Source: an uncultured cyanobacterium
GTDB lineage: Bacteria > Cyanobacteriota > Cyanobacteriia > Cyanobacteriales > Microcystaceae
DNA length: 64,000 nucleotides
NCBI GenBank assembly: GCA_963807635.1
Contig: CAWEDJ010000075.1
Coordinates: forward strand, 68,348-132,347
Reading direction: 5' to 3'
Shown here: one piece after another, positions 3,105 through 50,136 of the stretch
Numbering within the stretch: position 1 is the stretch's first letter
Layout of the letters: the number at the start of each line of letters is the position of its first letter
The notes under the pieces: model-generated
The model's database searches: none
What the model was told of the DNA's origin: nothing
The model's input: only the letters and a program-made list of their open reading frames with translations
Position numbers and translations under genes: made by a program

Positions 3105-3255
3105 CGCTGTTCTATCACTCTAGAGAGAAAATAGATAGAAACCACAAGGAAAAATTATCTTCAACAGAGAATTTGTTAGTTTACTTAACTGGAAGAATAA
3201 ACGGCAAAATACTCGCAGAATTTGAGGTGTAAAAATTACGACTAACCAAGGTTTA
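3105..3255 (-). mobile_element. IS701-family right-end remnant (inverted, diverged copy of about 4570-4720)
   Basis: Reverse complement aligns to 4570-4720; both end in CGCTGTTCTATCA. Confidence 0.7.
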
Positions 3256-4316
3256 CAGCAAATTTCGTTCAAACCCGCTACAAGTATGGTAACATGAAAA
3301 AAACTTAAAAAAATTAATGAGATATGGCAGCATATTCGCTAGATTTACGCCAAAGAATACTAACGGCATGGCAAAACCAAGAAAATACTCAAAGAGGTTT
3401 AGCAAAACGATTTAAGGTTAGCTTATCTTTCGTTCGCGATTTTTTACGTCGGTATCGACAAACAAATGAAATAGCACCCAAACCCCAAGGGGGAGATCGC
3501 CGTTCAAAGATAAAGGGTGAAGACGAAGAATTATTAAAAAAAATAGTTGCAGAACAAAATGATATATATTTACGAGAAATCCAAGAAAAATTGCAACAAG
3601 AGAAAGGAATAGAAGTAAGTATATCGGGGGTAAGTCGAACTCTTACACGTTTAGAATTAGGGCGTAAAAAAAAAACATTAGTAGCAAGTGAGCAAGGCAC
3701 AGAAAAGGTTAAAGAATCGCGTTATGAATTTAGACGTTGGCTAGAGACGATAGATATAAGAAACCTGATATTCATTGATGAGACGGGTCTTAATCTAGCG
3801 ATGGTAAGACTCTATGCGCGTTGTCTGGGAGGAGAAAGGGTTTATGATGAGCGTCCAGGAAATAAAGGACAAAACATCACTTTAATTGGGGCGATGAGTG
3901 ATGAAGGTTTGATTGCCTCAATGACCTTTCCTGGCAGTCTAAATACCGATAGTTTTTTAGTCTTTATTGAGCAAGTATTATTACCTCAGTTATGGGCAGG
4001 GGCAATTGTCGTGATGGATAATTTGTCTGTACATTACGCTACCGTCACTACAAATCTGATTGAATCTGTTGGAGCCAAGGTTAAATTTTTACCTTCCTAT
4101 TCGCCAGATTTATCACCAATTGAGTTGTGTTGGTCTAAATTAAAAGAAATTATTCGCTCTGCTAAAGCTCGAACAATCGAGGCTCTTGACGAAGCTATTA
4201 CTAATGCGATCAATACCATTACTGATGAAAATGCTCTTGATTGGTTCCAACATTGTGGTCTCTATTTTGAGCCTTTGAGATAGCTTTTTTGTAGTGCGTT
4301 TGATCGGAAATTGCTG
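3256..4316 (+). mobile_element. IS630-family insertion sequence
   Basis: 28-bp imperfect TIRs (CAGCAAATTTCGTTCAAACCCGCTACAA / CAGCAATTTCCGATCAAACGCACTACAA, 23/28) flanked by TA on both sides. Confidence 0.9.
3324..4283 (+). CDS. IS630-family transposase
   Basis: YSLDLRQR N-terminal HTH; DDE motifs FIDETG, VMDNLSVH, YSPDLSPIELCWSKLK. Confidence 0.92.
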   Translation: MAAYSLDLRQRILTAWQNQENTQRGLAKRFKVSLSFVRDFLRRYRQTNEIAPKPQGGDRRSKIKGEDEELLKKIVAEQNDIYLREIQEKLQQEKGIEVSISGVSRTLTRLELGRKKKTLVASEQGTEKVKESRYEFRRWLETIDIRNLIFIDETGLNLAMVRLYARCLGGERVYDERPGNKGQNITLIGAMSDEGLIASMTFPGSLNTDSFLVFIEQVLLPQLWAGAIVVMDNLSVHYATVTTNLIESVGAKVKFLPSYSPDLSPIELCWSKLKEIIRSAKARTIEALDEAITNAINTITDENALDWFQHCGLYFEPLR

Positions 4317-4318
4317 TA

Positions 4319-4720
4319 GGATGGGCAGATTTTCGAGTAACAGAATATAAAAAAATTGAAAAGTGGTGGGAACTGGTCATGAGTGCTTACTTAATGGTGA
4401 GTCTTCAATCAGAAGCCTTGAACAAATCCAGAAAACCTCCTGATACATTAGCTGAATCTGCTCAAGAAGAAATGCAGAAACACCCAAAATGGAATAAGGG
4501 AAAGGGCTGGAAAAATACCCTCAATAATTTACGATTGTTTATTCAGCCATTATGTTACTTCAATCTGCTTAAACCTTGGTTAGTCGTGATTTTTACTCCT
4601 CAAATACTGCGAGTATTTTGTCGTCTATTCTTCCAGTTAAGTAAACTAACAAATTCTCTGTTGGAGATGATTTTTCCGCGTGATTTCTATCTATCTTCTG
4701 CCTAGATTGATAGAACAGCG
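4319..4720 (+). pseudogene. IS701-family transposase C-terminal fragment plus right end
   Basis: Reads GWADFRVTEYKKIEKWWELVMSAYLMVSL...KGWKNTLNNLRLFIQP directly after IS630; 5' part absent. Confidence 0.75.
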
Positions 4721-4761
4721 CTAAATAGCGATCGCATAGTGTCACTCTTGTGATCGCAGTT

Positions 4762-5001
4762 TTAGGGATTAGGGAAAAAACCAAACTTAATAATGGCTCC
4801 TACTACGGCAACGATGAGAACCCAAATTTGCGATCGCTGGCTCCCTCTTAAATCTTTGACATCTTCTTTAACCGTTGTGACATAAGCTTTTAGGGTTGCT
4901 ATATCAATTTTTATTGTGGTTACATCGCTTTCAATAGCTCCCAATCTTTTATCAATTCGGTCTAGGATTTCCTTAAGGTCGGTTTCAATCGTGGTTGCCA
5001 T
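4762..5001 (-). CDS. Small coiled-coil protein with C-terminal TM helix (cassette gene A; DUF4164/XhlA/Bdr-like)
   Basis: Heptad repeats then IWVLIVAVVGAII; AAGGA RBS; 77/79 aa identical to 47961..48200. Confidence 0.8.
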   Translation of the reverse strand: MATTIETDLKEILDRIDKRLGAIESDVTTIKIDIATLKAYVTTVKEDVKDLRGSQRSQIWVLIVAVVGAIIKFGFFPNP

Positions 5002-5120
5002 GATGTATTATTCCTTTAAGTTTTTGATTGAAGGGAAAAGTTAGCCGCTTCTTTTTTCTATTTTATGGGTTAATTTATGGGAGCGAGGTTATGATCGCGT
5101 GGCGGTATTGGGCGATCGCA
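5002..5120 (-). repeat. Conserved inter-cassette module (HIP1-like pair, TAAAAT -10, leader hairpin, RBS)
   Basis: Homologous to 5510-5590, 47860-47960, 48201-48321 and 48595-48668. Confidence 0.75.
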
Positions 5121-5209
5121 CTAATTGGAATTTGTTCTAAAAAATATTTTCATTTAAGCAAAAATAAGGTTGTGGCGATCGTACTTTTTCTAATGATTTT
5201 GATCGCAGT

Positions 5210-5509
5210 TTAAGGACGGATACCACCGCTTTTAAGAAACCAGCCGATAGTTCCCCCAATAGTTCCACTGAAGATCGAACTAATCATTGCAGTAGCGATA
5301 ATCAAACCAATTTGTTTCCAGTTTTTGAGTTCTCCTACTTTTTCGGCTAGGTCTGGAATTTTCTGGAGATTAGGTTGTTGAGATTGTAGAGTGGCCTCTA
5401 TTTTCCCAACACTAACTTTAAGGTCGGTTATTTCCGCATCAAGACGACTAAAGCCAGATGTAATTAAATCTTTTAATTCTTTAAGGTCGGTATCGGTGAC
5501 GGTTGCCAT
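5210..5509 (-). CDS. Small coiled-coil protein with C-terminal TM helix (cassette gene B)
   Basis: MATVTDTDLKEL start like the paralogues; coiled coil; TM IGLIIATAMISSIFSGTIGG. Confidence 0.8.
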   Translation of the reverse strand: MATVTDTDLKELKDLITSGFSRLDAEITDLKVSVGKIEATLQSQQPNLQKIPDLAEKVGELKNWKQIGLIIATAMISSIFSGTIGGTIGWFLKSGGIRP

Positions 5510-5590
5510 GATGTATGATTCCTTTCGTTTTTGATTGAAGGGAGAAGTTGGCCGCTTCTTTTTTCTATTTTATAGGGTAATCTATTACAT
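5510..5590 (-). promoter_or_regulatory. Cassette promoter/leader module
   Basis: Minus strand: TAGATTACCCTATAAAATAGAAAAAAGAAGCGGCCAACTTCTCCCTTCAATCAAAAACGAAAGGAATCATACATC-ATG. Confidence 0.7.
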
Positions 5591-5630
5591 CGCGGCACTG
5601 TATAATCGCACTGCGCCAACTTATAACGCT

Positions 5631-6389
5631 CTATTTTTTTTCTCTGAGCTTGCGCTGGAATGCTCTGATGCTGTCTTTAATAATAGCGTTCAAATTGATA
5701 CCTACACCTGCAATATTAGGCTTAAGTTCTAGCCATTCGGATTTATCAGCAATATCATCGGCAATCGCCTTTCGGGCTTTGGGTGGAATAATCTCGTAAT
5801 CAAGCAGCTTGGATACGGCATTAGTTGAATCACAGTAATCTAAATACTCTGAAGCTTTTGCTGGCTCAAATACTTTTGCCTGTCCAAGAAGAATGAAAGA
5901 AAATGACTCCCATCTTGAAGAGAGACGCATAGTAGTCAGTGAAGTATTACAAGTCGTATCCCAAACAGTATCATACTGGTAATGTCTTTTCTTCTGCACC
6001 TCTGGGTTGGTTTTATCATATGGATCAACAATATGTAGCTCCGTAAACTTGAAGTTAGGAGGTAACACTAGATTGTAAAATCCACCAGATCCTTGTCGTG
6101 GAGAACCGACGGGAAGCCCCATGTGTTCCCAATAAAAATTTATAGCTGTTTCTGAATCATTTATTTGGAATTTTCTTAATTTTGTTTTTTGGATCTGAAT
6201 TGAACAAGTTGATGCGTTGTAGACTCTTGATCCACCTATATTTATAGAATCTGAGCTATCAAACTCAATCTCAATGTCACGAAGACGATCAATAACGACC
6301 GAAGCATTATCGTCAAGTGGTGTAATTTTATACGTTGTAAGAACACCGTCAGGACTTATGTAATCAATCAGGGCAACAGCTATGTACAT
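5631..6389 (-). CDS. Hypothetical protein, 252 aa, probably foreign
   Basis: Long ORF with no HIP1 sites; C-terminal LELKPNIAGVGINLNAII motif. Confidence 0.7.
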   Translation of the reverse strand: MYIAVALIDYISPDGVLTTYKITPLDDNASVVIDRLRDIEIEFDSSDSINIGGSRVYNASTCSIQIQKTKLRKFQINDSETAINFYWEHMGLPVGSPRQGSGGFYNLVLPPNFKFTELHIVDPYDKTNPEVQKKRHYQYDTVWDTTCNTSLTTMRLSSRWESFSFILLGQAKVFEPAKASEYLDYCDSTNAVSKLLDYEIIPPKARKAIADDIADKSEWLELKPNIAGVGINLNAIIKDSIRAFQRKLREKK

Positions 6390-6688
6390 ACATTAAATAC
6401 TTGAGTTTTGAATTATTAATATTACTTGAGTATTCTGCCGATCACTTTTCAAGGATTCTCGGTTGACAACTGCAAACTATATTGAGACTGAACGCTAACA
6501 GGCAAGGTTCATAATGGGTCTCACCGATTATTTAGATGTTTAACTGTGAATTATACAGGGATTTTTTATATATTAGCCTAAATCGACTATTAGCCTAAAT
6601 AGACGATCAGAAGAAACATTTCTTATAATACCCTTTAAAACGTGTTATGCAGATTAATCACAATGATATTTAGTAACAATAATAAAGC

Positions 6689-7618
6689 TCACTTTTCAGT
6701 ACCGCATAACATATCTCCGTCTAATATTCTGATCCCAGATGTTTCAATCCCTCTCGCAATTTCATGCCCCCATCTATCACTCAATGTATGAATACCCTGT
6801 TCACCAAATTCTTGATGATATCCATCAGGTGCAGTCCACACTTCTTTTTCGTCATACTTTGTGTATTTAGGATCTAAGTATTCTGTAGGTACATATGTCA
6901 ATAAATCAGAGCATTCTTTTTTTGTGAGATTCTTTTTCAAAGAACGTATGATTAAAGTTCCTTGATGTCCACAGTCATCACACACGATATAATCGATAGC
7001 GTATGGCGGTAAATTTTTTATAATTCTTTCTCTTTCTTTTTTTTCAGCTTGAGCTTGTAGATCAGCAATCTGTTGTTGATGAATTGATTTTTTTGTAGCA
7101 ACCTCCTTATCACAGGCTAAACCTATATCATTTCTTTTTTTACCAGCTTTCTCATAGTCCTTAGAGATACAGGAAGTATCCTTCGTTATTTTTGGAGCGT
7201 AATACTTATGAAAAATATCTATACCAGGAGCAATTCTAGAGTTTAAATAAATAGCCTCTTTTAAGGATAATTTGCCACTAATAGCATTTTGTTTATAAGC
7301 ATATTTTTGTTTTTGAATCGAATTATAATCTACTAAAATAACACTTATTAAAGTAATGAAGAATAAAGCATATACAAAATACAAAAAAGGATACTTTTTA
7401 GTATATTTTATAAAAAATTGTATAATTGTTACAATCGCGATGAATAAAAAACTAAGTGCTTTTAAAATTGTTAGCAGTATAAAACATACTATCCAAAGAA
7501 TAGTACATCCTAAAAAAAAGTAAACGAAAGCCCAAAATAAAAGGTAAAATCCCATTAGCATTGAATATTTAGTCCTTTGTAACAGTAAATGAATTATTTT
7601 ATCTAAAAATAGCATCAA
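6689..7618 (-). CDS. Hypothetical membrane-anchored protein, very AT-rich
   Basis: 309-aa ORF; 2-3 N-terminal hydrophobic helices, Cys-containing soluble C-terminus; start uncertain. Confidence 0.6.
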   Translation of the reverse strand: MMLFLDKIIHLLLQRTKYSMLMGFYLLFWAFVYFFLGCTILWIVCFILLTILKALSFLFIAIVTIIQFFIKYTKKYPFLYFVYALFFITLISVILVDYNSIQKQKYAYKQNAISGKLSLKEAIYLNSRIAPGIDIFHKYYAPKITKDTSCISKDYEKAGKKRNDIGLACDKEVATKKSIHQQQIADLQAQAEKKERERIIKNLPPYAIDYIVCDDCGHQGTLIIRSLKKNLTKKECSDLLTYVPTEYLDPKYTKYDEKEVWTAPDGYHQEFGEQGIHTLSDRWGHEIARGIETSGIRILDGDMLCGTEK

Positions 7619-44183: not shown

Positions 44184-44250
44184 CGTTTATAAAAATCAAA
44201 ATGTGATTGATCATTATCGGCAAATAGTATTCTGTCCATACAGTAAAACC

Positions 44251-44340
44251 ATGACTCTAAAAGAACAACTCCTCCAATAAATCGAACAGGCTCCCGAAAT
44301 TCTATTGCAATCCTGCTTAAAACTTATTCTCTCCCATAAG
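44251..44340 (+). pseudogene. Fragment of a small antitoxin-like gene (DUF2281-like)
   Basis: MTLKEQLLQ*IEQAPEILLQ..., internal stop and truncation. Confidence 0.4.
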
Positions 44341-44609
44341 CCCTCCGTTCTTTCCCCATCATAAATGAAATCAGAATCCGTAAAATGACTATCCCCATCA
44401 ACCTCAATCACCAACTTTAACTTAGGACAATAAAAATCAACAATAAAATTATTAATCGGTTTTTGTCGCCAGAATTTCACAGGAAAATTTCGTAAATATC
44501 CCCATAACTTACGCTCTGCAATCGTTGAATTCGTTCGCATTTCCCTCGCCCTAGCCACTAACTGTGGATTGTAAGGAAGAAAATAATCGCCTTCTTTAAA
44601 ATTAGTCAT
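44340..44609 (-). pseudogene. DUF559 (Vsr-like) endonuclease, 3' truncated
   Basis: RAREMR..T.AERKLW..LR...RQKPI..FIVDFYC..LVIEVDGDSH; the expected IRF-N C-terminus is missing. Confidence 0.75.
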
Positions 44610-44619
44610 AATTATCGTT

Positions 44620-45865
44620 GGCTCTTCTGGTTAAGGTGTGGAATTATAGTTACGAATTAAAACAAGCAAATAATTTCAGCCGCAAGTGTTGAAAGTTAGT
44701 AAATCCATAACTCATCCTTTTAATTAATTTGATTTTTGTATTCATTCCCTCCGTTATCCCATTCGTTGTATGTCTCTCAAAATAATTACAGATACCTGTT
44801 AAATGATTTCTAACCATATTGGCACTTTTTCGATAAATTATTCCACTGGTTCTCAGCCATTTTTCAAATTGTCTTTTTGCTCCATTGGCTTTTCTCAACC
44901 TTTCATAGATTTGTCTAAACTCTTCTTTCATTTCATACGCTATTCTCAAGAGCGGATATTCTTCTAATACCTTTTCTAAACTTTGTTTTTGTTCTTCCTT
45001 TAAGTCATTTTGATTTTTTCATAATAAATGGAGTAATCCTTTTTTATGCACGTTCATTATCTTTCTTAATTCATTCAGTTCCTCATTAACTATCCGCATT
45101 ATATGAAAACGATCATAAGTGATTTTTGCATTCGGAAATAATTCCTTGATTACTGCTGTAAAACCTTCCCACATATCCACACTTACTTCTTCTATTTTCT
45201 CTCTAACACCTTCAGGTTGAGACTTTAGCTCTTTCATCACTTCTTCTTGTTTATGCCCCTTTATCACCTCCAGCAACTTTTTATTGTCTAGATCTATTAC
45301 TGTTTTTATTAAGTCTTTATTTCCTTTTCTATTGCTAAATTCATCCAAACTTATTCTTTTTGGCGATTCCCACTCTTTCTTTTCATCTCTTTTTGCCAGT
45401 TCTTCAAAGATTGAATTAACTTCATCCCATCCTAGACCCTCTTCTTGACAAACCTCTTTTATATTTGACCTTTTAATTCGCTCATAAATCATTTCTTCAT
45501 AGCGAGTTGTGTGATGTTTTCTTAGTCTCATAAAACTTAGTCTTTCTATCGTATATTTGTCACAATTTTGACAATAAAACTGACGACGAGGGACTTCTAA
45601 GTATGCTGGATTTCCTATTATGGCTAGGTCGCGCGCTAGACTATACTCTGTCTGATTTATTGTGTCTAATATTCGATGGCAATTCGGACATTCTATCGTT
45701 TCATTTACAAGGTTTAATTTGAGGAATATTATCCCATCAATCTTTTTATAGTTGACGACGGTTACATTCGGTAAATCTAGAACTTGATCAATGATCATCC
45801 ACATAACTCACCTCCCGCCTATCTATTACCTATTATACTTTCTTCACACAAAGTCGTGAAGAGCC
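44620..45865 (-). mobile_element. ISL3-family IS; transposase 44650..45804 has an in-frame TGA at 45019-45021
   Basis: GGCTCTTC terminal IRs; CPNC zinc finger, SLDEF, VDMW, DRFH, TNGITEGMNTKIK motifs; no target duplication. Confidence 0.9.
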
Positions 45866-46130
45866 TTTTTTACTTTCTGAAGATGTGCGTCAAGCAAACT
45901 TTTACAGTAAAAAGCTGAGGAATCTAGCTCAAAGACAATGGCATAGAGAGATGTCTCTGTTTTGTGATTTAGTCTTATTTCATCAAATAAAAGAGTTGTT
46001 ATTTCGCCAAATATCAGTTCCATATCATATCAATATTGAGAGAACAAAACGATGGACTTATCTTGCAAAAGATACGCGAATGTTCATGGATATGATTGTT
46101 TTAGACGAATGCAGATATGTCTACGATTGG

Positions 46131-47427
46131 CAGGGTAAGCGCAAGAAAAATGTTAACGTAATATGATATACAAAAAAAGATGAAAAAAGATGAAAAAAGT
46201 AGAAATAAATCAAGACTCCCAATCAAACCTAGAAATTCAAGAAAAATCAACCCGAAAAGCCCAAGAAAGATGGTTATCCTATTTTCAGAGTCTGGAAGAC
46301 CCCAGAGGCAAACAGGGAAGAGAGCATAATTTTCTGAGTATCGTAATAATTTCCGTATTAGCCGTAATAGGAGGTGCAGTAGGCTGGGAAGATATAGAAT
46401 TATATGGAGTGAGTCATGAACAATGGTTGAGAACATTTCTAAATCTAGAAAAAGGGATACCAAGTGCAGATACCTATCGACGAGTATTAGCTAGGTTAAA
46501 GCCAGAAGCGTTACAGGGATGTTTTCAAGGGTGGATAAAGCAAGTGGTAGAGGAGACAGGGGAACAAATTATTCCGATAGATGGTAAAGAGATGAGAGGT
46601 TCTTATGACAGAAATTATCAACAAGGGGCATTAAGAATAGTAAGTGCTTGGGCGATGGAAAATCATTTGATGCTAGGGCAAGTAAAAGTAGATAACAAAA
46701 GCAATGAAATAACAGCAATACCGATACTATTAGAGTCATTAGAGGTTAAGGGCTGCACAATTACAATAGATGCAATGGGAACTCAGAAAGCAATAGCGGA
46801 AAAAATTGTAGAAAAGCAAGCAGATTACGTTCTGAGTTTAAAAAGAAATCACCCCACGTTGCATGATGAGGTAGAGTCATGGTTTGAAAAAGCAGAAGAG
46901 CAAAAGTTTCAGGGAGTAAATTTGAGCCATGACTTGGGCATAGAAGCAGGACATAACCGCCGAGAGAAGCGTGAAATCTGGGCAATTCCTCTAAGCGAAA
47001 TGGGAGGACTTTATCAAGAAGAAGAATGGGCAGGCTTGCAAACCATTGTCAGGGTGGAGAGATACCGACATCTCTGGAATAAAACCACTCACGAGATCCA
47101 ATTCTATCTCACATCGTTACCCTGTTCTGCTCAGGTTATTGGTCGGGCAATTCGTCAGCATTGGAGTATCGAAAATCAATTACACTGGGTTTTAGATGTC
47201 ACTTTTAGCGAAGATTCCTCTCGCATTCGTCGTGGACATGGAGCGGAAAACTTTACTTTTTTGCGGCGTATGGCTATCGGAATTCTTAATCAAGAAAATA
47301 GCAAAAAAAGGAGTCTCAGGCAAAAATCTCGATTGGCTTCTATGAACTCTCGATATATGCTTCAAGTCCTTACTCAAGCTTTCTTTTCTTAACATTTTTT
47401 GTTTCCTTTTTTCTTGCGCTTACCCTG
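46131..47427 (+). mobile_element. ISAs1-family IS with 9-bp TSD
   Basis: Perfect 20-bp TIR CAGGGTAAGCGCAAGAAAAA; TACGATTGG duplicated at 46122-46130 and 47428-47436. Confidence 0.95.
46190..47392 (+). CDS. ISAs1-family transposase
   Basis: DPR, IDGK, KSNEITAIP, TIDAMGTQ, HWSIENQLHWVLDV.F.ED motifs. Confidence 0.95.
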   Translation: MKKVEINQDSQSNLEIQEKSTRKAQERWLSYFQSLEDPRGKQGREHNFLSIVIISVLAVIGGAVGWEDIELYGVSHEQWLRTFLNLEKGIPSADTYRRVLARLKPEALQGCFQGWIKQVVEETGEQIIPIDGKEMRGSYDRNYQQGALRIVSAWAMENHLMLGQVKVDNKSNEITAIPILLESLEVKGCTITIDAMGTQKAIAEKIVEKQADYVLSLKRNHPTLHDEVESWFEKAEEQKFQGVNLSHDLGIEAGHNRREKREIWAIPLSEMGGLYQEEEWAGLQTIVRVERYRHLWNKTTHEIQFYLTSLPCSAQVIGRAIRQHWSIENQLHWVLDVTFSEDSSRIRRGHGAENFTFLRRMAIGILNQENSKKRSLRQKSRLASMNSRYMLQVLTQAFFS

Positions 47428-47711
47428 TACGATTGGATGCCTACTGTTGATATGATTGAAGCTGGTATGGATTCTATAGATAGGCAATTATGTTATCGAT
47501 TTGCGTTAGATGCTTTAGGAAAACATCGGAGATGGTACAATAATGAATACTTCTTTGGGACTGCGGTAATAAGTCAGTTTCAAGAAGGTTTTGAGGCAAA
47601 ATGTCTAGCCCGAAGAATTATCATCAATTGATAATAAAAATAATTTAAATCTTTGATATATTAATGGCATAATCAGTGCGATCGCGATCGCAGTAGGATA
47701 CGTTAACGCAA

Positions 47712-47806
47712 TATAGCGGTATTCAGTCGTATGAGGGGCAATAAAATTTTTGAAAGGCTTACTGTACAAGACTCCAATACACCTCACTCACGTGACTACC
47801 GCTATA
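47712..47806. mobile_element. MITE of about 95 bp with TA ends
   Basis: TIRs TAGCGGTATTCAGTCGTATGAGG / TAGCGGTAGTCACGTGAGTGAGG (16/23) flanked by TA; non-coding. Confidence 0.7.
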
Positions 47807-47859
47807 TAATCCACCTTGTTTTTGCTTGATCAAAACTATTTTTCAGCGCAGACTCCAAT

Positions 47860-47960
47860 TAGTGCGATCATAACCTCGCCCGATAGATTACCCTATAAAA
47901 TAGAAAAAACAAGCGGTCAACTTCTCCCTTCAATCAAAAACTTATAAGGAATAATACATC
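47860..47960 (+). promoter_or_regulatory. Cassette promoter/leader module
   Basis: GCGATC...GATAGATTACCCTATAAAATAGAAAAAACAAGCGGTCAACTTCTCCCTTCAATC...AAGGAATAATACATC-ATG. Confidence 0.7.
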
Positions 47961-48200
47961 ATGGCAACCACCATTGAAACCGACCTTAAAGAAATCCTAG
48001 ACCGAATTGATAAAAGATTGGGAGCTATTGAAAGCGATGTAACCACAATAAAAATTGATATAGCAACCCTAAAAGCTGATGTCACAACGGTTAAGGAAGA
48101 TGTCAAAGATTTAAGAGGGAGCCAACGATTGCAAATTTGGGTTCTCATCGTTGCTGTAGTAGGAGCCATTATTAAGTTTGGTTTTTTCCCTAACCCGTAA
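47961..48200 (+). CDS. Small coiled-coil/C-terminal TM protein (cassette gene C)
   Basis: Near-identical to gene A at 4762..5001. Confidence 0.82.
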   Translation: MATTIETDLKEILDRIDKRLGAIESDVTTIKIDIATLKADVTTVKEDVKDLRGSQRLQIWVLIVAVVGAIIKFGFFPNP

Positions 48201-48321
48201 ACCCGCGATCATCCATACCTCCACGCGATCGCAATCTTGATAGATTACCCTAAAAAATAGAAAAGGGAAAGTTCACAGCTTCCCCTAATCCATCAAACAA
48301 TATCTAAAGGAATGACAACTC

Positions 48322-48594
48322 ATGGCAACCACGATTGAAACCGACCTGAAGGAAATTTTAGGGGAATTCAAGCAAGAATTTTTAAAACTCAATCAGCGAC
48401 TAGACAGAATAGAGGGTGACTTAACTTCTCTCAAAGTCGATATGGCAACGGTCAAAACTGAATTGAACTTTATCCGAGAAGATGTTAAAGACTTGAAAGG
48501 TTCCCAACGCGCCCAGGTATGGGCATTAATTATCACTGTCATCGGAGCCACTATTGCCGCCGTTGTAAAATTTGGTTTCTTCCCTAATCCCTAA
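48322..48594 (+). CDS. Small coiled-coil/C-terminal TM protein (cassette gene D)
   Basis: Shares MATTIETDLKEIL and KFGFFPNP with A/C; longer, different middle. Confidence 0.82.
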   Translation: MATTIETDLKEILGEFKQEFLKLNQRLDRIEGDLTSLKVDMATVKTELNFIREDVKDLKGSQRAQVWALIITVIGATIAAVVKFGFFPNP

Positions 48595-48668
48595 AACTGC
48601 GATCGCCCAATGCTCCCACGCGATCACCATTTAGCCCCGATAGATGACTGTATAAAATAGAAAAAAAA
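48595..48668 (+). repeat. Terminal copy of the inter-cassette module, with no following cassette gene
   Basis: AACTGCGATCGCCC...CACGCGATC...GATAGATGACTGTATAAAATAGAAAAAAAA. Confidence 0.7.

Positions 48669-48845: not shown

Positions 48846-50136
<1,291 letters not shown>

Follow-up and report, generated by a model that had tools for sequence, protein, structure and literature searches.

The stretch of DNA analysed here (the window, 64,000 nucleotides; positions 68348-132347 of contig C75 of genome G000) comes from a genome of 41% GC that is rich in HIP1, the abundant palindrome GCGATCGC. Homologues of its array genes carry the source label Snowella, and the host is a Snowella-like, freshwater, unicellular cyanobacterium of the Microcystaceae. 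On the forward strand, gene C (47961-48200) encodes a 79-aa, XhlA-like coiled coil with a C-terminal transmembrane (TM) helix, and gene D (48322-48594) encodes a 90-aa coiled coil with a TM helix. On the reverse strand, gene A (4762-5001; 79 aa) is a near-identical paralogue of C (96% nucleotide identity), and gene B (5210-5509; 99 aa) belongs to a divergent subfamily. One hydrophobic 19-mer lies near the C-terminus of each of the four products. All four genes are present where a preliminary description of this DNA had placed them, with the shared ends that it reported. The C-D array is followed by ahcY (48846-50136, forward strand), a conserved anchor gene whose frame is 368 aa, versus 424-474 aa in relatives, owing to a frameshift near 49913 in an A-run; this is possibly an assembly error. 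The relatives compared (G001-G005) belong to the same genus, and all compared genomes represent different species.

An iterative profile search of G000 recovered 25 ORF pieces of this gene family, corresponding to about 24 loci. Genome searches found the family in all six genomes of the genus and in 50 of 61 genomes of the taxonomic family, and its profile matched 1817 of 8000 scored database proteins. The family is under purifying selection: pooled dN/dS over 11 non-overlapping pairs of equal length was 0.086, and the genes are therefore functional. The protein tree has poor resolution and the genes are mosaics, so we draw no order of events. The locus points to a large, selected and uncharacterised family of membrane proteins.

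The likeness of the proteins to XhlA, proposed in the preliminary description, is real but weak. XhlA (PF10779) was the best Pfam match of the family and stood among its best PHROG matches, but the scores of A (32.6 bits), C (30.4 bits) and D (29.1 bits) all lay below the gathering cut-off of 34.7, and gene B gave no PF10779 match. NCBIfam, PHROGs, PDB and Atlas yielded nothing beyond generic coiled-coil or XhlA-like matches, and no paper was found for MempromCC, a family name for membrane-anchored coiled coils. The gene D product was modelled as a single long helix. Its parallel homotrimer model scored 0.75 (best of three controls, 0.00). Of 30 solved homo-pairs 20 passed the mark on this scale, as did 1 of 23 single chains, and a generic coiled coil can pass it through likeness; the trimer runs agreed in at least 95% of contacts, with pLDDT of at least 82. 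The prediction for the family proteins is a trimeric coiled coil that a single C-terminal helix anchors. Like the XhlA family, whose members PBSX XhlA and SPP1 gp24.1 are described in the available part of the source as holin partners with a C-terminal TM helix (PMC6316719), they consist of a short coiled coil followed by a single C-terminal TM helix. Unlike it, they are multi-copy and chromosomal, lie outside recognisable lysis cassettes and score below the cut-off. No endolysin lies beside the window arrays, and none of 46 pattern matches to the family in viral contigs was confirmed. Their genomic neighbours and their XhlA likeness tentatively suggest a membrane role in phage exclusion or defence.

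HIP1 cores punctuate both arrays. Near C and D they start at 47678/47684, 47864, 48205 with 48225, and 48599 with 48620; near A and B they start at 4728 with 4752, 5093 with 5112, 5175 and 5201. On the forward strand, two overlapping octamers (47678-47691) form the left border of a spacer tile before C. A single imperfect HIP1, GCGATCAT (47864-47871), is the left border of tile C and the empty form of a 21-bp insert present before A. The C/D joint holds a HIP1 pair of 20-bp period (48205-48232), likely a decayed insert resembling the SDR5 element discussed below. After D, a pair of 21-bp period (48599-48627) is a degenerate SDR5-like insert with 8 of 15 core matches, and G004 has one HIP1 at this place. 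On the reverse strand, the pair before A (5093-5119) is the filled form of the 21-bp SDR5-like insert, with 9 of 15 core matches to the reference copy, and a pair of 22-bp period follows A (4728-4757). The pair spacings are 20, 21, 21 and 22 bp. Paired HIP1 had been proposed beside each gene; this is so after C, D and A, but C is preceded by a single core rather than a pair. Nor does A end in the same module as C and D, since the pair after it leads into the end of an IS at about 4722 and not into a promoter box.

The association of HIP1 with these genes extends to the family as a whole. A core starts within 12 nt of the stop codon in 36 of 82 family genes, compared with 119 of 2644 long ORFs of G000, and lies 55-135 nt before the start codon in 48/82 compared with 400/2644; both positions are occupied in 29/82 and 25/2644, respectively. 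The 82 are those with full flanks among 84 genes found in G000 and in loci fetched from G001-G005, and such counts are not independent events because the genes are homologues. Outside the genus, a stop-proximal HIP1 accompanies just 5 of 33 family genes and tandem arrays occur that lack it, so tandem growth of the family does not need HIP1. At L204 and L206, in another genus, a 27-bp repeat that lacks HIP1 stands between three tandem family genes. It is in the present genus and its near kin that the HIP1-tile form is most pronounced.

The preliminary description regarded the paired HIP1 as a possible recombination site. The pair is instead an optional 21-bp SDR5-like insert dispersed throughout the genome. 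The spacing of HIP1 cores in G000 has a local peak at 21 (45 pairs, versus 5 at 20 and 7 at 22), and a core sequence is common to 23 of the 90 pairs with a 21-bp period. The sites before A and before C differ by an exact 21-bp indel (filled versus empty), and with C69 and L162, each compared between G000 and G004, they make three empty/filled pairs. Copies lie at G000:C36:61101-61171 and about 20 other sites, with one tandem triple and with empty and filled alleles. The left octamer starts with GCGATCA in 15 of 24 pairs and the right octamer is perfect in 18 of 24; the cut is not uniquely placeable within the repeat, and the octamer pattern and exact 21-bp indels are compatible with insertion between HIP1 bases 3 and 4. 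Since the copies after C, D and A are degenerate, we infer, rather than observe, that those pairs derive from the 21-bp element.

SDR5 is described, in the portions of the literature accessible to us, as a 21-nt dispersed element inserted in HIP1 (PMC5861425, PMC4390886, PMC13756078), the insertion falling between HIP1 bases 3 and 4 (PMC4390886). The element in G000 is likened to it by description and not by consensus sequence: it is 21 nt long, dispersed and HIP1-associated, and has tandem copies and empty and filled alleles. It differs in its host, a unicellular genus of the Microcystaceae, whereas SDR5 is known from Nostocaceae and, in the available text of PMC5861425, is reported only there. 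The present case would place an SDR5-like element beyond the Nostocaceae, the first such report according to that text (PMC5861425).

Each of the genes C and D is preceded by an upstream box, a putative -10 region, and a leader. For C, box, leader and ribosome-binding site span 47882-47960; for D, box and leader span 48239-48321, the leader being of a type in common with the C67 paralogue. On the reverse strand, a leader, an upstream box and a decayed SDR5-like remnant precede gene B (5510-5615), with no exact HIP1 core. The third copy of the box that was claimed after D does exist (48639-48664, 3 mismatches), but it is degenerate and leaderless; the whole orphan (48639-48668, forward strand) has neither leader nor ORF. 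An nhmmer search with box and leader gave 14 matches (E up to 1), found only before family genes apart from two orphan copies and one weak match. A sigma-70 scan did not pick the box and canonical TAnnnT occurs in only part of 30 upstream boxes, so we treat it as a putative promoter. Among four contigs from RNA runs, one spans gene C (about 96% identity) and, at low depth, part of D, and another touches the 3' end of D, which does not prove transcription of C and D. At an A-run the orphan box gives way to the native DNA upstream of ahcY; truncated tiles terminate other arrays, and the box is likely a relic of a lost third tile. The rule of n genes and n+1 repeats, proposed for the promoter-leader module, holds for HIP1 sites instead: the arrays at G005:C63, C47, C67 and cobW end in bare HIP1, and G005:C63 has three tandem tiles and four HIP1 cores.

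Further HIP1-bounded units contain no family gene. The spacer tile before C (47692-47863, forward strand) consists of a GTAG-type start, a 96-bp insert and a spacer of ~55 bp; judged by motif type, the start is REP-like and the insert MITE-like. The HIP1-bounded spacer of ~55 bp precedes both A and C and is a repeat piece beyond the box and the pair. Spacers of this kind (about 55-60 bp) have four strong copies in G000 and are repeated between genes in the arrays of relatives. Box/spacer search and core scan placed another spacer tile, with the HIP1 cores at 5175 and 5201, after gene B (5120-5206, reverse strand). The MITE-like element (47711-47806) is 96 bp long with inverted ends, has three full copies in G000 and occurs at high depth in metagenome contigs. 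At 32-619 of the window lies a Y1_Tnp/RAYT-like gene split in two ORFs, with two further copies in G000, and a GTAG-type motif occurs no more than 25 nt from HIP1 in 5 of 6 copies. Both arrays adjoin clusters of IS remnants (ISAs1-type DDE_Tnp_1, ISL3-like and IS630), at 44214-47392 and 3120-4722.

The arrays are not invariant, in keeping with the earlier suggestion that cassettes are gained, lost or shuffled: content and order differ between congeners at cobW, murD, ahcY and C47. At the ahcY site, G004 (95% nucleotide identity) retains only the final ~70 nt of a family gene, together with one HIP1, and lacks the orphan box; G001 and G002 have no family gene and other neighbours. At the murD site, which holds the B-A array, family genes stand behind unrelated ORFs in four of six genomes; the G004 contig ends before this site, and G003 gave no murD match. 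The cobW site has two family genes and a methyltransferase-like ORF in G000, four family genes in G003, four with Septu PtuAB in G004, one divergent gene in G002 and none in G001. Two cobW tiles, X1 and X3, share 96-97% identity between G003 and G004 over the whole length from one HIP1 to the next, and between the two tiles lies a gene tile in G003 and a 59-bp HIP1-bounded spacer in G004. At the C47 site, G000 carries two cargo ORFs alongside three genes and a 3' fragment; G004 has one gene there that is mosaic inside its ORF, with an upstream switch at HIP1. The gene B tile (96% nucleotide identity) sits in another array context in G004.

Empty sites were less clear-cut. The nearest is G000:C46, where a single HIP1 occupies the place at which G004 carries a family gene flanked by two degenerate cores; none of the sites compared was a perfect empty site, with one HIP1 and two intact flanks, and rearrangement of C86 and C69 in relatives left no clean empty allele there for the gene. 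Of five sites with a family gene in G004 and none in G000, only two have HIP1 at a junction, and one lies at a tRNA end with no HIP1 at all. A metagenome pattern scan with the region upstream of ahcY returned one unrelated eukaryote-like contig and no strain-level alleles, and among the genomes and contigs compared no event was observed at the level of strains or reads. A G004 insert (L092:4820-6130) has a direct repeat of about 45 bp, a whole HIP1-pair unit, at its ends, and a single copy of this repeat lies at G000:C61:20262-20307.

Most ends of shared blocks fall on HIP1, which upholds the idea of shuffled cassettes. Over 10 locus pairs, chosen for holding family genes, a HIP1 core is found no more than 10 nt from 18 of the 28 internal block ends, against a local chance of 10.9%; the ends are not independent, as three-way comparisons count some joints twice. 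Because shared blocks end in this way, the unit runs from HIP1 to HIP1 and is not defined by the promoter repeat. Comparison of paralogues gave a similar picture. Their 3' homology stops at HIP1 in 137/455 pairs, and in 131/160 where both have a stop-proximal core; 5' homology does so in 37/727, all of these belonging to the 91 pairs in which both members have an upstream core and homology reaches 40 nt or more (null mean 4.8, maximum 11). Beyond the family, HIP1 coincides with 17 of the 88 breakpoints between G004 and G000 in 705 kb of G004, compared with 4-5% for one genome, a background that rises up to about double since HIP1 in either genome was counted; some of the scanned tiles were taken from contigs that carry family genes. 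In four metagenomes, contigs depart from the window at 48595-48607, just past the HIP1 that follows D, or connect D-type ends with a C-type box at HIP1, joints that do not distinguish circles from other gene orders.

We favour, with a probability of roughly 60%, the interpretation that the arrays are built by host recombination focused at HIP1 together with exchange between paralogues. Excision or strand exchange from HIP1 to HIP1 would free a unit of ~370-400 bp (upstream box, leader and gene), which could re-enter at another HIP1 or through homology to a paralogue, either within the cell or through natural transformation. Repetition of such events would give tandem arrays and hotspots that also take up spacer tiles and defence or toxin-antitoxin cargo, and no dedicated integrase would be needed for a tile to move. 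Recombination at the repeat alone, as first proposed, is too narrow, as the mosaic C47 gene of G004 implies exchange inside the reading frame too.

One could dispense with HIP1 altogether and invoke plain duplication, unequal crossover and gene conversion among paralogues, HIP1 being an ancestral, conserved hitchhiker at gene ends amid changing intergenic DNA. The HIP1-less arrays of other genera, the mosaic ORFs and the lack of enrichment among accessory genes all agree with this, and stop-proximal HIP1 is a shared inherited trait. However, identity falls from 95-97% to unrelated at HIP1 on both sides of swapped tiles, spacer and Septu tiles switch likewise without paralogue homology, and breakpoints away from the family are enriched too. 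We consider paralogue exchange by itself quite unlikely.

A trans-acting enzyme, either a tyrosine recombinase or a Y1/HUH single-strand transposase, might instead cut HIP1, with 21-bp elements, spacers and gene tiles moving as circular cassettes. Three size classes of tile with one common joint, and a 21-bp element that is a clean insert, would suit such an enzyme, as would the split Y1_Tnp-like gene with its copies, the GTAG-type motif beside HIP1 and the tyrosine recombinases elsewhere in G000; yet no recombinase is linked to any array examined, and the tyrosine recombinase and Y1-type genes are unlinked. The joints after A and D form hairpins that leave some bases unpaired (z -2.2 and -2.7), but other joints fold no better than shuffles, and pairing between any two HIP1 cores follows from the palindromic nature of HIP1. 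Metagenome contigs with joints that seem to go back would fit circles, although they fit other gene orders equally well, and homology-driven events are required in any case to account for mosaic ORFs and 3' gene fragments. This explanation is unlikely; in all likelihood HIP1 is not where a dedicated integrase acts but a joint common to the tiles, at which host recombination takes place.

The cargo of the arrays includes Septu and toxin-antitoxin pairs. PtuAB (Septu) in the cobW array of G004 was identified by PADLOC (E 1.7e-156 and 8.2e-75) and has HIP1 22 nt from each end. Toxin-antitoxin or nuclease genes differ between G003 and G004 in the C34 interval. HIP1 lies within 80 nt of 6 of 12 cargo units (background 19%) and on both sides of 5 of 12 (p 0.06), none of them in the window. 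The window itself has two genome-specific ORFs (252 and 309 aa; 5631-7618, reverse strand) between murD and the B-A array, with no Pfam or PADLOC family over the cut-off and no exact HIP1 core within 300 nt. The notion that all accessory genes are HIP1 tiles fails: in G004, 28 of 214 accessory ORFs are HIP1-flanked compared with 31 of 366 core ORFs (p 0.09, not significant). A hotspot adjacent to purS in three genomes has a HIP1-bounded repeat of ~130 bp (L037:1325-1620 and 1952-2082, L136, L139) that separates toxin-antitoxin and nuclease genes (DUF433/DUF5615, NYN, RNase III and RES-like). In a G005 array (L093:5733-6134), family genes adjoin an ORF labelled by eye as GH19-looking, without a Pfam match, and at L191 they stand directly behind an ORF that, by eye, resembles an HTH repressor. 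A bolder proposal, which we regard as doubtful, is that HIP1 serves as a universal, integrase-free attachment site, a natural modular-cloning joint through which one host machinery handles 21-bp elements, spacers, self-expressing membrane-protein genes and whole defence operons, the coiled-coil genes being homology anchors that seed defence hotspots.

Such cargo invites comparison with integron cassette arrays and CALINs. These likewise have tandem small genes in variable order and content, defence and toxin-antitoxin cargo, and a palindromic joint at the stop codon, and the palindromic repeat here begins at the stop codon. The ends of attC sites follow the consensus RYYYAAC and GTTRRRY. Such ends (RYYYAAC...GTTRRRY) occur in none of the six window modules on either strand, and no integron integrase passed the cut-off (TIGR02249 best 48.3 bits versus 265, in an assembly that is 94% complete). 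An Rfam search gave one chance match, and the genes carry their own conserved upstream box. An integron or CALIN with attC sites is a very improbable account; the present arrays differ in having neither attC ends nor IntI, in a joint that is an 8-bp genome-wide motif, in an upstream box for each family gene and in mosaic ORFs.

The closest parallels are with HIP1 itself, whose function has been a standing question for three decades in the sources as available to us (PMC13756078, PMC5861425). From the accessible parts of these reports, a HIP1-flanked segment of 352 bp was excised at smtB in Synechococcus PCC 6301 (PMC13756078), HIP1-mediated plasmid recombination is described for PCC 7002 (PMC13756078, PMC4390886), and evidence for site-specific recombination is given (PMC4390886). 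Homologous HIP1 raises integration or transformation, as far as that source was available (10.1101/2024.09.10.611283); HIP1 had little effect on editing in Nostoc punctiforme, according to the portion available (10.64898/2026.07.31.742098); and, in the visible text of one group of papers, HIP1 introduces no indels in alignments (PMC13756078, PMC4390886, 10.1101/2024.09.10.611283 group). No description of HIP1-bounded gene arrays was found in the literature searched, a search with most subscription journals and supplements outside its scope.

The locus suggests a possible natural role for HIP1, with natural, base-resolved, gene-sized units that start and end at it, and offers a defined 380-bp substrate for HIP1-dependent excision and insertion. 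If true, our interpretation would explain the integrase-free turnover of some cyanobacterial defence hotspots and could yield a simple integration tool. As far as the partly available sources describe HIP1-mediated recombination, the likeness is that the segment which is lost or exchanged has the size of a gene and carries GCGATCGC at either end, with no dedicated enzyme known. The difference is that those cases are single deletions or laboratory plasmids, whereas here natural repeated tiles, spacers and defence cargo occupy variable chromosomal hotspots.
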